Source: an uncultured Acidobacteriota bacterium
GTDB lineage: Bacteria > Acidobacteriota > Terriglobia > UBA7540
Reading direction: 5' to 3'
DNA length: 45,223 nucleotides
Assembly (NCBI GenBank): GCA_963804995.1
Contig: CAWDSK010000007.1
Coordinates: forward strand, 1-45,223
Below, piece after piece: positions 1 to 45,223 of the stretch (the first letter of the stretch is position 1; each line of letters opens with the position of its first letter). Under the pieces are notes generated by a model, which worked only from the letters and a program-made list of their open reading frames with translations, searched no databases and had not been told where the DNA came from. Position numbers and translations under genes: made by a program.

Positions 1-1904
1 GATAAACCGGCAGAAAGCAGAGAATGAAAATTTCTCACGAGGAAGGAGCAGCTATTCACTCGGCCCCGAGTTTTGCGCTGGGCGTCGTGAGGCGCACGGT
101 GAAGCGTAAACAGGGGAATAGGTGGGCTGGGTATTGAGCTTCGAAAATGTCCAATCAGGACGCCGACGTTTTCAGACTAAACGGAAGGCAACATGAGGCC
201 GGGACGCCAACGCGAGTTCCGGCACAGTCCTGCGTAGTCGTAGACCCCAGACACGCCTAGACACTTTCTGCACGAGAACCGGGAGACCTCGGAGGCGCCG
301 GCCGCCGTAGATCGTGGCCGGACGGCGGGAAAAGGCGATGGCCGTACAGCCCGCCTGCACGCTTTCGAGGAGTCGGACAGCGGAACAGTACCGATGAATC
401 ATTTGAACAAAGACGGGAAGCCGTTGGCGGAGAATGAGGAGGGAAGGCCGCTGATCAAGGAGAACACCCGTTGGCCTAACACGCACCCGACACAGAGCGG
501 GGCACGCGTGTCCCAGGGACTCGCGGGTGTGCGGAAAGCCGCGAAGGAACACAGGGAGATGAAGTTCACGGCCTTGCTCCACCACTTAACGGTCGATCTG
601 CTGCGGGAAAGCTTTTACGCCTTGAAGCGAAAAGCTGCACCGGGAGTAGACGGCATGACGTGGCAGGAGTATGAAAGCGGGCTGGAAGGTCGACTCGTCG
701 ATCTGCACAGCCGGGTCCACCGCGGAGCATTCCGAGCGAAGCCCTCGCGAAGGGCGTATATCCCGAAAGGCGACGGGCGGCAACGTCCGTTGGGGGTTGC
801 GGCACTGGAGGACAAGATCGTCCAACAGGCCGTGGTCACCATCCTCAATGCGATTTACGAGGAAGACTTTCTGGGCTTCTCGTATGGCTTTCGACCGGGA
901 TGCAGCCAGCATCAAGCGCTGGACGCGCTCTCGTACGCGCTCACGGTGAAGCACGTGAACTACGTTCTTGACGCGGACATTCGTGGATTTTTCGATTCGA
1001 TATCCCACGAATGGATGCTCAAGTTCGTGCAGCATCGCGTCGCCGACCCCCGGATTCTCCGGCTCATCCAGAAATGGCTGAAAGCCGGGGTGAGGGAGGA
1101 AGGCGAATGGTCGGAGACGGAGATGGGTACGCCACAAGGGGCGGTGGTCTCGCCCCTGCTGGCGAATATCTATCTGCACTACGTCTTTGACCTGTGGGTG
1201 CAGGCGTGGCGCAAGAAGCACGCCCGGGGAGACGTGGTCGTGGTGCGGTATGCCGACGATACGGTCCTTGGATTCCAATCGCAGACGGAAGCCGACCGCT
1301 TTCTGGAGGATTTCCGGGAGCGGGTGGGGAAGTTTGGATTGGAACGGCATCCTGACAAAACGCGCCGGATCGAGTTCGGGCCGTTTGCCGAACTTTACCG
1401 GAAACGGAGAGGAGAAGGTAAGCCGGAGACGTTCGACTTTCTGGGCTTCACGCATATCAGCGGGAAGAACCGGAGGGGGCAATTTACCGTGAAGCGGAAG
1501 ACGATCAGCAAGCGCCTGCGGGGGAAGTTGCAGGAACTCAAGCAACAACTCCGGCAGCGTCGGCACGATCCCATCGCGGATACGGGTAAATGGCTCCGGT
1601 CGGTCGTGCAAGGCTACTTCAACTATCACGCGGTACCGGGAAACCTCGACCGCCTGCGAATCTTTCGGGAACGGTTGACCCGACTGTGGCGAACGCAACT
1701 GCGTCAACGCAGTCAACGCCACCGCCTCAACTGGGACCGACTGGGGAAGCTTGCGGCCTGCTGGTTGCCTGCTCCGCACGTTGTGCATCCTTGGCCATCC
1801 CAACGGTTCGCCGCCACACATCCGAGATAAGAGCCGTATGCGCTAACCAGCGCACGTACGGATCCGTGCGGGGGGTACCGGGTAACCGGTATCCCTACCG
1901 CAAC
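1..1904 (+). mobile_element. Group II intron, copy 1 (first 9 nt lie outside the window)
   Basis: Direct repeat of 1983..3886 (offset 1982). Domain V gAGCcgtatgcgct-aacc-agcgcacgtacggatc at 1831..1864; domain VI with bulged A1897; 3' end AAC at 1904; contains an RT ORF. Confidence 0.95.
394..1830 (+). CDS. ltrA: Group II intron reverse transcriptase/maturase, no HNH endonuclease domain
   Basis: Motifs APGVDG, RPLG, SYGFRPG, DADIRGFFD, GTPQG, RYADD and FDFLGF, followed by a domain X region; the ORF stops just before domain V. Start codon uncertain. Confidence 0.93.
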   Translation: MNHLNKDGKPLAENEEGRPLIKENTRWPNTHPTQSGARVSQGLAGVRKAAKEHREMKFTALLHHLTVDLLRESFYALKRKAAPGVDGMTWQEYESGLEGRLVDLHSRVHRGAFRAKPSRRAYIPKGDGRQRPLGVAALEDKIVQQAVVTILNAIYEEDFLGFSYGFRPGCSQHQALDALSYALTVKHVNYVLDADIRGFFDSISHEWMLKFVQHRVADPRILRLIQKWLKAGVREEGEWSETEMGTPQGAVVSPLLANIYLHYVFDLWVQAWRKKHARGDVVVVRYADDTVLGFQSQTEADRFLEDFRERVGKFGLERHPDKTRRIEFGPFAELYRKRRGEGKPETFDFLGFTHISGKNRRGQFTVKRKTISKRLRGKLQELKQQLRQRRHDPIADTGKWLRSVVQGYFNYHAVPGNLDRLRIFRERLTRLWRTQLRQRSQRHRLNWDRLGKLAACWLPAPHVVHPWPSQRFAATHPR

Positions 1905-1973
1905 CGCTACGTTTACTCGGATTGGGTAGCGCGAGCCTCAGGAAGAACCGCAGACCTCAAAGGCGGAGGTCTG
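1905..1973. repeat. 69-bp inter-intron spacer built from REP-like parts
   Basis: cgctac 1905..1910, gtagcg 1926..1931, hairpin cagacctc (1951..1958) / gaggtctg (1966..1973). Confidence 0.8.
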
Positions 1974-3886
1974 GTGCGCCGGGATAAACCGGCAGAAAGC
2001 AGAGAATGAAAATTTCTCACGAGGAAGGAGCAGCGATCCACTCGGCCCCGAGTTTTGCGCTGGGCGTCGTGAGGCGCACGGTGAAGCGTAAACAGGGGAA
2101 TAGGTGGGCTGGGTATTGAGCTTCGAAAATGTCCAATCAGGACGCCGACGTTTTCAGACTAAACGGAAGGCAACATGAGGCCGGGACGCCAACGCGAGTT
2201 CCGGCACAGTCCTGCGTAGTCGTAGACCCCAGACACGCCTAGACACTTTCTGCACGAGAACCGGGAGACCTCGGAGGCGCCGGCCGCCGTAGATCGTGGC
2301 CGGACGGCGGGAAAAGGCGATGGCCGTACAGCCCGCCTGCACGCTTTCGAGGAGTCGGACAGCGGAACAGTACCGATGAATCATTTGAACAAAGACGGGA
2401 AGCCGTTGGCGGAGAATGAGGAGGGAAGGCCGCTGATCAAGGAGAACACCCGTTGGCCTAACACGCACCCGACACAGAGCGGGGCACGCGTGTCCCAGGG
2501 ACTCGCGGGTGTGCGGAAAGCCGCGAAGGAACACAGGGAGATGAAGTTCACGGCCTTGCTCCACCACTTAACGGTCGATCTGCTGCGGGAAAGCTTTTAC
2601 GCCTTGAAGCGAAAAGCTGCACCGGGAGTAGACGGCATGACGTGGCAGGAGTATGAAAGCGGGCTGGAAGGTCGACTCGTCGATCTGCACAGCCGGGTCC
2701 ACCGCGGAGCATTCCGAGCGAAGCCCTCGCGAAGGGCGTATATCCCGAAAGGCGACGGGCGGCAACGTCCGTTGGGGGTTGCGGCACTGGAGGACAAGAT
2801 CGTCCAACAGGCCGTGGTCACCATCCTCAATGCGATTTACGAGGAAGACTTTCTGGGCTTCTCGTATGGCTTTCGACCGGGACGCAGCCAGCATCAAGCG
2901 CTGGACGCGCTCTCGTACGCGCTCACGGTGAAGCACGTGAACTACGTTCTTGACGCGGACATTCGTGGATTTTTCGATTCGATATCCCACGAATGGATGC
3001 TCAAGTTCGTGCAGCATCGCGTCGCCGACCCCCGGATTCTCCGGCTCATCCAGAAATGGCTGAAAGCCGGGGTGAGGGAGGAAGGCGAATGGTCGGAGAC
3101 GGAGATGGGTACGCCACAAGGGGCGGTGGTCTCGCCCCTGCTGGCGAATATCTATCTGCACTACGTCTTTGACCTGTGGGTGCAGGCGTGGCGCAAGAAG
3201 CACGCCCGGGGAGACGTGGTCGTGGTGCGGTATGCCGACGATACGGTCCTTGGATTCCAATCGCAGACGGAAGCCGACCGCTTTCTGGAGGATTTCCGGG
3301 AGCGGGTGGGGAAGTTTGGATTGGAACTGCATCCTGACAAAACGCGCCGGATCGAGTTCGGGCCGTTTGCCGAACTTTACCGGAAACGGAGAGGAGAAGG
3401 TAAGCCGGAGACGTTCGACTTTCTGGGCTTCACGCATATCAGCGGGAAGAACCGGAGGGGGCAATTTACCGTGAAGCGGAAGACGATCAGCAAGCGCCTG
3501 CGGGGGAAGTTGCAGGAACTCAAGCAACAACTCCGGCAGCGTCGGCACGATCCCATCGCGGATACGGGTAAATGGCTCCGGTCGGTCGTGCAAGGCTACT
3601 TCAACTATCACGCGGTACCGGGAAACCTCGACCGCCTGCGAATCTTTCGGGAACGGTTGACCCGACTGTGGCGAACACAACTGCGTCAACGCAGTCAACG
3701 CCACCGCCTCAACTGGGACCGACTGGGGAAGCTTGCGGCCTGCTGGTTGCCTGCTCCGCACGTTGTGCATCCTTGGCCATCCCAACGGTTCGCCGCCACA
3801 CATCCGAGATAAGAGCCGTATGCGCTAACCAGTGCACGTACGGATCCGTGCGGGGGGTACCGGGTAACCGGTATCCCTACCGCAAC
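1974..3886 (+). mobile_element. Group II intron, copy 2 (complete, 1913 nt; IIB-like exon recognition; possibly bacterial class E)
   Basis: Starts GTGCG at 1974 and ends AAC at 3886; domain V 3813..3846; EBS1 loop cagact 2155..2160. The class is a tentative guess from the KFTALLHH N-terminus and the missing endonuclease domain. Confidence 0.95.
2376..3812 (+). CDS. ltrA: Group II intron reverse transcriptase/maturase, no HNH endonuclease domain
   Basis: Same motifs as copy 1 (YADD); keeps consensus-like GFRPGRS and LELHPDKT. Confidence 0.94.
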   Translation: MNHLNKDGKPLAENEEGRPLIKENTRWPNTHPTQSGARVSQGLAGVRKAAKEHREMKFTALLHHLTVDLLRESFYALKRKAAPGVDGMTWQEYESGLEGRLVDLHSRVHRGAFRAKPSRRAYIPKGDGRQRPLGVAALEDKIVQQAVVTILNAIYEEDFLGFSYGFRPGRSQHQALDALSYALTVKHVNYVLDADIRGFFDSISHEWMLKFVQHRVADPRILRLIQKWLKAGVREEGEWSETEMGTPQGAVVSPLLANIYLHYVFDLWVQAWRKKHARGDVVVVRYADDTVLGFQSQTEADRFLEDFRERVGKFGLELHPDKTRRIEFGPFAELYRKRRGEGKPETFDFLGFTHISGKNRRGQFTVKRKTISKRLRGKLQELKQQLRQRRHDPIADTGKWLRSVVQGYFNYHAVPGNLDRLRIFRERLTRLWRTQLRQRSQRHRLNWDRLGKLAACWLPAPHVVHPWPSQRFAATHPR

Positions 3887-3898
3887 CGCTACCTTTAT

Positions 3899-3935
3899 TT
3901 TTGCCTTTTGCCTTTTGCAATTTGCCTTTTGCCTT
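3899..3935. repeat. Heptamer tandem repeat (TTTTGCC), about 5 copies
   Basis: ttttgcc ttttgcc ttttgca atttgcc ttttgcc read directly. Confidence 0.85.
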
Positions 3936-3994
3936 GTACTTCGCCTCTGCCTATCCCGACACATCGGGACTCGCCAACCGCGCCCGCTGCCTAC

Positions 3995-45007: not shown

Positions 45008-45031
45008 AAAGGCACTTCAGACTGCGCTGGC

Positions 45032-45223
45032 TGGCGCAGACCCCTGTCTTTTGGGGTCTGCGGTGCCCCGAAGGGGCAGGGGTTGCGGCCAGCTCCAGCG
45101 GTGATGGATTGCAATTGTCCTGCCTGTAAGTACACTTCTAGAAAGGAGTGTACACCCACGCTAATCTCTTGTTGGATGAGTGTCCCTCCGGGACATCGCA
45201 GACCCCAAAGAACGGGGGTCCGG
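45032..45223. repeat. Inverted pair of CGCAGACCCC REP-like hairpins (same family as the intron target)
   Basis: tggcgcagacccc-tgtctttt-ggggtctgcgg at 45032..45063 and cgcagacccc-aaagaacg-ggggtc at 45197..45220. Confidence 0.8.

Follow-up and report, generated by a model that had tools for sequence, protein, structure and literature searches.

A multicopy group II intron that very probably homes into REP palindromes of an acidobacterial genome

The targets described for bacterial group II introns are of three kinds: ordinary homing sites (often in insertion sequences, IS), terminator hairpins and attC sites (PMC4424553). Among introns that lack an endonuclease (En) domain, RmInt1 and RmInt2 of Sinorhizobium meliloti (class D) home into multicopy mobile elements, use the lagging-strand template and belong to groups of related introns that diverge in target (PMC5894124; PMC8914252); their targets are ISRm2011-2 and the inverted repeats of ISRm17 (PMC5894124). 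Class IIC introns are likewise En-less, and insert beside DNA hairpins in intergenic DNA with a lagging-strand-template bias (PMC4424553; PMC8919778). REPs (repetitive extragenic palindromic sequences) are landing sites for several IS (ISPpu9, ISPpu10, ISPsy8 and ISPa11), and a group II intron of P. putida KT2440 is associated with REPs in 2 of its 9 copies (Tobes and Pareja 2006, PMC1525189), a report that gives no mechanism for this. The element described here is a group II intron found twice at the start of contig CAWDSK010000007.1 (C7) of an uncultured soil acidobacterium, whose genome (G000) comprises 7.55 Mb in 9 contigs with 58.5% G+C. The first 45,223 bases of this contig constitute the window. 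Very probably this is a recently expanded and still active En-less intron of class E (IIB-like), which uses a REP as its homing site by means of pairing between its exon-binding sites (EBS) and the target.

This locus resembles each of the described systems in part. By analogy, the behaviour is that of RmInt1/RmInt2-type homing, here apparently applied to a REP. Unlike the targets of RmInt1 and RmInt2, however, that of the window intron is a non-coding REP of ~38 nt present in hundreds of copies and not a transposase-encoding IS, and the intron itself is of another class. IIC introns have an EBS1 of 3-4 nt, have no EBS2 and read a folded stem-loop upstream of the insertion point, whereas both intron-binding sites of the window intron (IBS1 and IBS2) lie inside the hairpin. 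In contrast to the KT2440 intron (2/9), the window intron is found at a single nucleotide position of the REP in 40 of 40 copies, and covariation between EBS and IBS is demonstrated. No description of systematic, base-pair-guided homing into REPs was found in the literature searched, which lay mostly outside subscription journals, so that an earlier description is possible. A search for literature on Acidobacteria together with group II introns found nothing.

The first intron copy lacks its first 9 nt, which are cut away by the contig start, and the second is complete. The 69 bases that separate them (1905-1973) are REP sequence, as is the CGCTAC 3' of copy 2. The features of the window are as follows, where RT denotes reverse transcriptase and ORF open reading frame.

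1..1904, + strand: first copy of the group II intron, nt 10-1913 of its length; 99.7% identical to copy 2 by blastn; RF02005 at 27-247, 166 bits
148..151, + strand: EBS2 (UGUC) of copy 1; covaries with exon -12..-9 across relatives
173..178, + strand: EBS1 (CAGACT) of copy 1
240..240, + strand: EBS3 (G) of copy 1; pairing in relatives
394..1830, + strand: RT/maturase ORF of copy 1, 478 aa, intact
1905..1910, + strand: 3' exon of copy 1, the REP tail CGCTAC (reverse complement GTAGCG)
1941..1973, + strand: 5' part of a REP family a unit (ggaagaac, 5' arm 1949-1958, loop 1959-1965, 3' arm 1966-1973)
1962-1965, + strand: IBS2 GGCG in the REP loop
1968-1973, + strand: IBS1 GGTCTG in the REP 3' arm
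1974..3886, + strand: group II intron copy 2, complete, 1913 nt, GTGCG...CCGCAAC; RF02005 at 2009-2229, 170 bits
2130..2133, + strand: EBS2 (UGUC) of copy 2; covariation across relatives
2155..2160, + strand: EBS1 (CAGACT) of copy 2
2222..2222, + strand: EBS3 (G) of copy 2; pairing in relatives
2376..3812, + strand: RT/maturase ORF of copy 2, 478 aa, YADD present, no endonuclease domain
3813..3884, + strand: predicted domain V (3813-3846) and domain VI (3849-3884), A3879 being the bulged branch point; folding energy -42.2 kcal/mol, z -4.88
3887..3892, + strand: 3' exon of copy 2, IBS3 C3887 and REP tail CGCTAC
45029..45066, - strand: empty REP family b site (...ggggtctg/cgccagcc; a slash marks the insertion point here and below), perfect GGTCTG/CGCCAG, on the almost-never-occupied strand of the contig

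The initial annotation, made from the letters of the window, had noticed that CGCTAC follows both introns, and it does so at 1905-1910 and 3887-3892. Removal of copy 2 also rebuilds a hairpin as had been proposed: cgcagacctc (1949-1958), the loop aaaggcg, and gaggtctg (1966-1973) with cg (3887-3888) form a stem of 10 bp. The ends of copy 2 are fixed by the 290 uninterrupted occurrences of GGTCYGCGCYA in the genome, and the predicted spliced junction is ...GAGGTCTG-CGCTAC..., with ends at 1973/1974 and 3886/3887.

A blastn search of the whole genome identifies 40 copies of the intron with 99.6-100% identity. Of these, 38 are complete, while the starts of C7 and C2 each truncate one; copies also sit at the ends of C6 and C9, so the assembly breaks at the intron repeat. 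All 38 copies with at least 35 nt of 5' flank are preceded by the hairpin cRgaccYY-loop-RRggtcYg, and all 39 copies with a 3' flank continue with CGCYA (24 CGCTAC, 13 CGCCAG, 1 CGCCAT and 1 CGCCAA). The examination of flanks across the genome that had been suggested thus places the other copies in the same palindrome, every visible flank reading ...GGTCYG/CGCYA, and the hairpin is a multicopy family. The 478-aa ORF is kept in 37 of the 38 copies compared by script, the remaining one carrying a 1-nt insertion. The EBS1 and EBS3 segments are identical in all 38, and a single-base difference lies near EBS2 in one.

The target consists of two REP families with stems of 8-10 bp. The consensus of family a is gaagaaccgcRgacctcaaNNNcggaggtcYg/cgctac, and that of family b is cgcagacccc-loop-ggggtctg/cgccag. 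Mismatch-tolerant consensus patterns find 278 uninterrupted members of family a and 52 of family b, and none in a reversed-sequence control. The tail of family a carries, in reverse complement (GTAGCG), the GTAG tetranucleotide that tags many REPs (PMC3733652); family b has CTGG instead. Some REPs stand alone, others form REPIN-like inverted doublets, and others again are arrayed in tandem with a period of 146-210 nt. Arrays of family a with periods of 146, 167 and 210 nt are found at C1:614809-615247, C3:230424-230925 and C2:582483-582903, and in these the spacers are repeated too. That the sites are extragenic is seen from the ORFs across them, the longest of which has a median length of 396 nt for 201 empty sites, as against 1174 nt for 600 random positions (p 6e-46). 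Since REPs lie outside genes and there are hundreds of them, insertion into them would be nearly neutral and ~40 copies could be reached. Tandem REPs would likewise give rise to tandem introns, as in the window. The central proposal of the initial annotation, an endonuclease-less intron that targets multicopy intergenic REPs, is borne out by 40 of 40 copies and by REPs that are extragenic, present in hundreds and associated with transposase genes of their own (described below).

The manner in which the intron reads this site is indicated by 79 loci with homologues of the protein that the intron encodes (IEP; 64-93% amino acid identity), nearly all from Acidobacteriota/Terriglobia, for which domain I and the flanks were aligned. 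EBS1 and EBS3 were compared over 63 aligned relatives. The hexamer CAGACT (173-178 and 2155-2160) lies in a 7-nt loop closed by CGTTT/AAACG and pairs with ggtctg with one G-U pair; its designation as EBS1 is confirmed by more than 15 target types (counted by eye), over which the loop covaries with the final 6-7 bases of the exon. Pairs of EBS1 and exon include CAGACT/ggtctg (window), CGGACT/ggtccg (L017 and L018), TGCATT/aatgca, TGTAAT/attaca, TAACAT/atgtta, TGAAAT/atttca, AACTAC/gtagtt and TGGTCT/agacca, among others. EBS2 consists of four internal-loop bases (UGUC) that covary with exon positions -12..-9 (or -13..-10). In total 180 of 228 possible EBS2 pairs are formed, in 57 distinct combinations, as against 132.7 +/- 4.4 with shuffled exons; none of 2000 shuffles reaches 180, a result that is inflated by relatedness and leaves out six loci in which the 5' end is unclear or copies are in tandem. 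Independent pairs are plain, for example CACC/ggtg, TACC/ggta, TTGC/gcaa and CGTT/gacg. EBS3 is intron nt 249 (window positions 240 and 2222). In 60 of 63 relatives it forms a Watson-Crick pair with the base that opens the 3' exon, and each of the four possible pairs is represented. The base previously assigned this role (G184, intron nt 193) stays G even where relatives begin their 3' exon with A, T or G, which makes that assignment wrong. The earlier reading of T172/A166 as delta/delta' finds no consistent pairing in the alignment on inspection by eye. The three guide segments of the intron match a single REP strand: EBS2 UGUC with the GGCG of the loop (-12..-9), EBS1 CAGACT with the GGTCTG of the 3' arm (-6..-1), and EBS3 G with C at +1. 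Pairing with both the loop and the 3' arm of one strand means that the hairpin must be open.

The related introns differ in target. The closest (L017 and L018, from a sister genome; 90% nucleotide and 92-93% amino acid identity) lie in the same REP family, at ...gggggtccg/cgctac, and carry the EBS1 CGGACT. The covariation between EBS1 and REP that had been put forward as a check is therefore found, the sister-genome intron with CGGACT residing in GGTCCG REPs. That genome contains 31 GGTCCGCGCTAC versus 14 GGTCTGCGCTAC, and the control contains 0. In another relative (L010) the target is cagacttt...aaagtctg, followed by cgctac. A distant relative in a complete Tunturiibacter chromosome (G002) occupies a repeat of 29 copies (at most 3 mismatches; 0 in the control). 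This repeat is palindromic in some copies (CTCAATGAG...CTCATTGAG), with the junction at the 3' arm's 5' edge; this geometry is unlike that of the window. No empty allele of the window locus was found in congeners: the downstream gene is conserved, but G008 has no REP there, and in G004 the REP is found ~190 nt upstream with its orientation reversed. Several related introns start with GAGCG or AAGCG instead of GTGCG (5' ends of L009, L022, L032, L035, L036 and L056; the observation also takes in L010 and L020).

The intron shares with the class E introns Cl.be.I2, S.me.I4 and the ltrA intron of Klebsiella IncF plasmids a match to RF02005, a small IIB-like ribozyme, EBS1 and EBS2, and the absence of En. 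Its IEP is 56-57% identical to those of the ltrA intron of Klebsiella plasmids and of an intron on a Rhizobium jaguaris plasmid, and these same elements (NZ_CP012993, NZ_CP028955 and NZ_CP032697) were typed as bacterial class E by Miura et al. 2022 (PMC8919778). Both window copies cover the entire RF02005 (group-II-D1D4-6) model, positions 1-225, with 166 and 170 bits (gathering score 49), and the Klebsiella and R. jaguaris introns match it at 184-198 bits. The IEP of copy 2 matches TIGR04416 (group II intron RT/maturase) with 347.8 bits (cut-off 300). Its sole Pfam match is RVT_1, so an endonuclease domain is absent. The ribozyme part measures 476 nt (1913 nt minus the 1437-nt ORF), and IIE/IIF ribozymes measure 450-700 nt (PMC3753933); IIE introns have EBS1 and EBS2 and no En domain, and splice in vitro without need of EBS2 (PMC3753933). 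Traits of class C are absent: EBS1 forms 6-7 bp and EBS2 3-4 bp, both covarying, and the junction falls inside the 3' arm with IBS1 in the stem. The intron is thus not of class IIC and probably belongs to bacterial class E (IIB-like), a placement made by identity to typed introns. Matches of the RT to solved IIB, IIC and IIA structures are alike (1.9e-41 to 6.5e-34) and do not discriminate between classes, and a literature search on RF02005 returned method lists only, with no mapping to an intron class. The class E literature consulted describes neither a REP target nor a burst of 40 copies, unlike what is seen here.

The last 81 nt of copy 2 (3806-3886) fold into two hairpins, predicted to be domains V and VI, with 7 nt between the bulged A3879 and the 3' end. 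The apical loop of domain V contains 4-8 nt depending on the pairs closed in the fold, the class E criterion being a loop of 5 nt. Opposite the G of this domain's AGC triad stands an A, or in some relatives a G, where a U is usual, and this triad G is unpaired in the fold. The upper helix has T at 3833 in copy 2 where copy 1 has C at 1851, and pairing is kept as G-U. RF00029 stays below its gathering score in the window, and reaches it in the relatives L014, L017 and L105.

Within the genome, occupancy was compared over 237 perfect-stem sites in the tail orientation, of which 36 are occupied. Strand was assigned by the sign of the contig-level GC skew, and contig C2, which is mixed, was set aside. 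Sites with IBS1 GGTCTG are occupied in 33 of 136 cases and those with GGTCCG in 3 of 101 (p 2e-6); relative to the EBS1 of the window, GGTCCG has one A-C mismatch, which corresponds to 8-fold lower occupancy. Of the sites on the G-rich strand 30 of 97 are occupied, whereas the C-rich strand has 1 of 116 (p 6e-11; C2 has 5 of 24). More than half of the GGTCTG perfect-stem sites on the G-rich strand are filled (27/49), and 37 of 40 introns follow the sign of the skew on their contig. The opposite orientation of the REP also ends in GGTCYG/C, with a non-matching IBS2, and is occupied in 0 of 234 cases (p 7e-12). Insertion into the lagging-strand template has been described for endonuclease-less introns (PMC8914252; PMC8919778; PMC4424553).

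Several observations weigh against the reading proposed above, or limit it. On the favoured strand, none of 41 non-REP sites matching RCRNNGGTCTG/C is occupied, as against 22 of 36 REP sites (p 4e-10), which indicates that base pairing alone does not explain the specificity. Either further features of the REP are read (3' exon positions +2..+5, positions -7/-8, or the hairpin), or insertions into genes are purged. A match to EBS2 shows only a trend with occupancy within the genome (p 0.20 to 0.36; 22/36 versus 5/13 with p 0.20). The assignment of strand uses a weak skew (0.001-0.026 absolute, at the level of whole contigs, with C2 mixed), and the sense strand of the intron would correspond to the lagging-strand template if the G-rich strand is the leading strand, which is the usual rule and is assumed here. 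The class has been assigned by identity, as stated above. Splicing and present-day activity are inferred from the intactness of the sequence; the public sequencing runs listed for the locus are metagenome DNA runs in which it has a small share, with no RNA run among them.

The second of these possibilities, that the intron inserts into any sequence matching its EBS and that selection purges insertions in genes while those in REPs survive, appears improbable. The 41 unoccupied matching sites are mostly non-repeat and, judging from their sequences, probably genic, and REPs are extragenic, both of which agree with such purging. However, three empty sites that are non-REP or degenerate are identical to REP a over -12..+2. 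In addition, over half of the favoured REP sites and no other site are filled, which is a sharp contrast for a burst this young (at least 99.6% identity). Sense-oriented group II introns are able to splice and can be tolerated, which also counts against selection as the cause.

Alternatively, the ribonucleoprotein could recognise the folded DNA hairpin of the REP, as IIC introns do theirs, with base pairing only fine-tuning the site. Each insertion abuts a strong hairpin of 8-10 bp, the empty non-REP sites would be explained, and the target repeat of the Tunturiibacter relative is partly palindromic. Against this, IBS1 occupies the 6 outer nt of the 3' arm, with IBS2 in the loop, so that pairing needs an open hairpin; a 6-bp EBS1 and an EBS2 are present here, and IIC introns are without EBS2 (PMC3753933); the IEP and RNA match class E; and the junction in the Tunturiibacter repeat has a different geometry. 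The targets of relatives show no excess of hairpins either: an inverted repeat of at least 6 bp is found in 11 of 51 distinct reconstructed targets and in 23 of 149 controls, and the folding energy of the 51 is no lower than that of controls. No transposase gene of the REP-associated type occurs within +/-1.5 kb of the intron in the 79 loci. These results argue that hairpin targeting is not a trait of the family, which from the alignments is instead characterised by retargeting through EBS change. The position of IBS1 inside the stem, together with targets of relatives that lack hairpin enrichment, points to sequence-guided retrohoming and makes targeting of structure unlikely. Of the comparison with hairpin targeting by IIC introns that was drawn initially, the REP as target stands, while recognition of structure gives way to pairing by EBS1, EBS2 and EBS3 in a class E intron.

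The REPs themselves are associated with REP-associated tyrosine transposase (RAYT) genes. The NCBIfam model NF047646 has six matches above its cut-off (80 bits) in the genome, and the RAYT genes adjoining the two families score 112-117 bits (116 and 111.5 bits for the two genes located next). One (C6:722336-722818) lies between two inverted REPs of family b, one of which carries the intron. Another (C5:58407-58817) directly follows an intron in a family a REP, with four further family a REPs downstream, and the REPs around this gene are in direct orientation. RAYT genes or fragments within a few hundred bases of intron copies are those at C5:58407-58817, C6:722336-722818 and C6:165735-165950. 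The C5 intron is on the same strand as the RAYT match, ends ~55 nt upstream of it and may affect expression of the gene.

This proximity could suggest that REPs already bearing an intron were copied by the RAYT transposase, or spread by recombination between REPs, so that the REP context travelled with the intron. RAYT genes adjoin three intron copies, and Y1 transposases also act on the lagging-strand template (PMC6006769). However, the occupied REPs belong to two families with at least 11 hairpin and loop variants that mirror the empty population, which indicates that pre-existing REPs were hit independently. The flanks beyond the REP are unique to each copy. The insertion point is that given by EBS1/EBS3 pairing, and a single IBS1 mismatch lowers occupancy 8-fold, which is unlike a DNA transposase. 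Such copying therefore seems highly unlikely.

Under retrohoming by EBS pairing, the spliced intron RNA with its bound RT would reverse-splice into the REP strand while this is single-stranded on the lagging-strand template at the replication fork. The nascent lagging strand would then prime synthesis of cDNA, as for RmInt1 and other endonuclease-less introns. Related introns would have been retargeted through changed EBS sequences. More tentatively, this sublineage of class E may be a specialised hyperparasite of the REP/RAYT system that needs, besides EBS pairing, a REP-specific feature such as the GTAG-side tail, transient extrusion of the hairpin, or pausing of the fork on the lagging-strand template. 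Insertion would split the GTAG tag from the stem and disable the REP as a RAYT substrate, introns and REPINs would compete, and EBS1 would track the dominant REP variant of the host. This extension is possible, and we regard it as rather doubtful.

Homing of a class E intron into REPs would add the most abundant class of bacterial non-coding repeat to the list of intron targets, and would illustrate a way for an endonuclease-less intron to reach ~40 copies without hitting genes. The genome also offers a natural experiment, with targets in the hundreds that are nearly identical except in one IBS1 base, in orientation and in strand, so that occupancy can be read for each variable. For class E, on whose mobility there are almost no data, it suggests a testable target rule consisting of positions -12..+1 plus something specific to the REP. 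For the biology of REPs and REPINs, it is relevant that the insertions have RAYT genes as neighbours and cut the hairpin off from its GTAG tag.

Some further sequence features were observed. Immediately 3' of the REP tail of copy 2, a run of TTTTGCC-like heptamers occupies 3897-3945. Bases 6-65 of the segment 3887-5400 match dozens of places in the genome and in congeners, and in one congener two such heptamer runs form an inverted, facing pair beside a REP. The runs look like a second family of dispersed palindromic repeats. Six short, diverged matches (69-89%) to intron ends occur elsewhere in the genome (C6:842519-842675, C2:652258-652371, C5:460088-460194, C1:440891-441114, C1:206514-206551 and C9:36920-36979). 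Their 5' flanks are not REPs, two have the common flank tatgttgRtgaaaagaaa..gg.gtt/, and the matches seem to represent further group II introns, or fragments. In one relative (L056), a second intron copy follows the first without a single intervening exon base.

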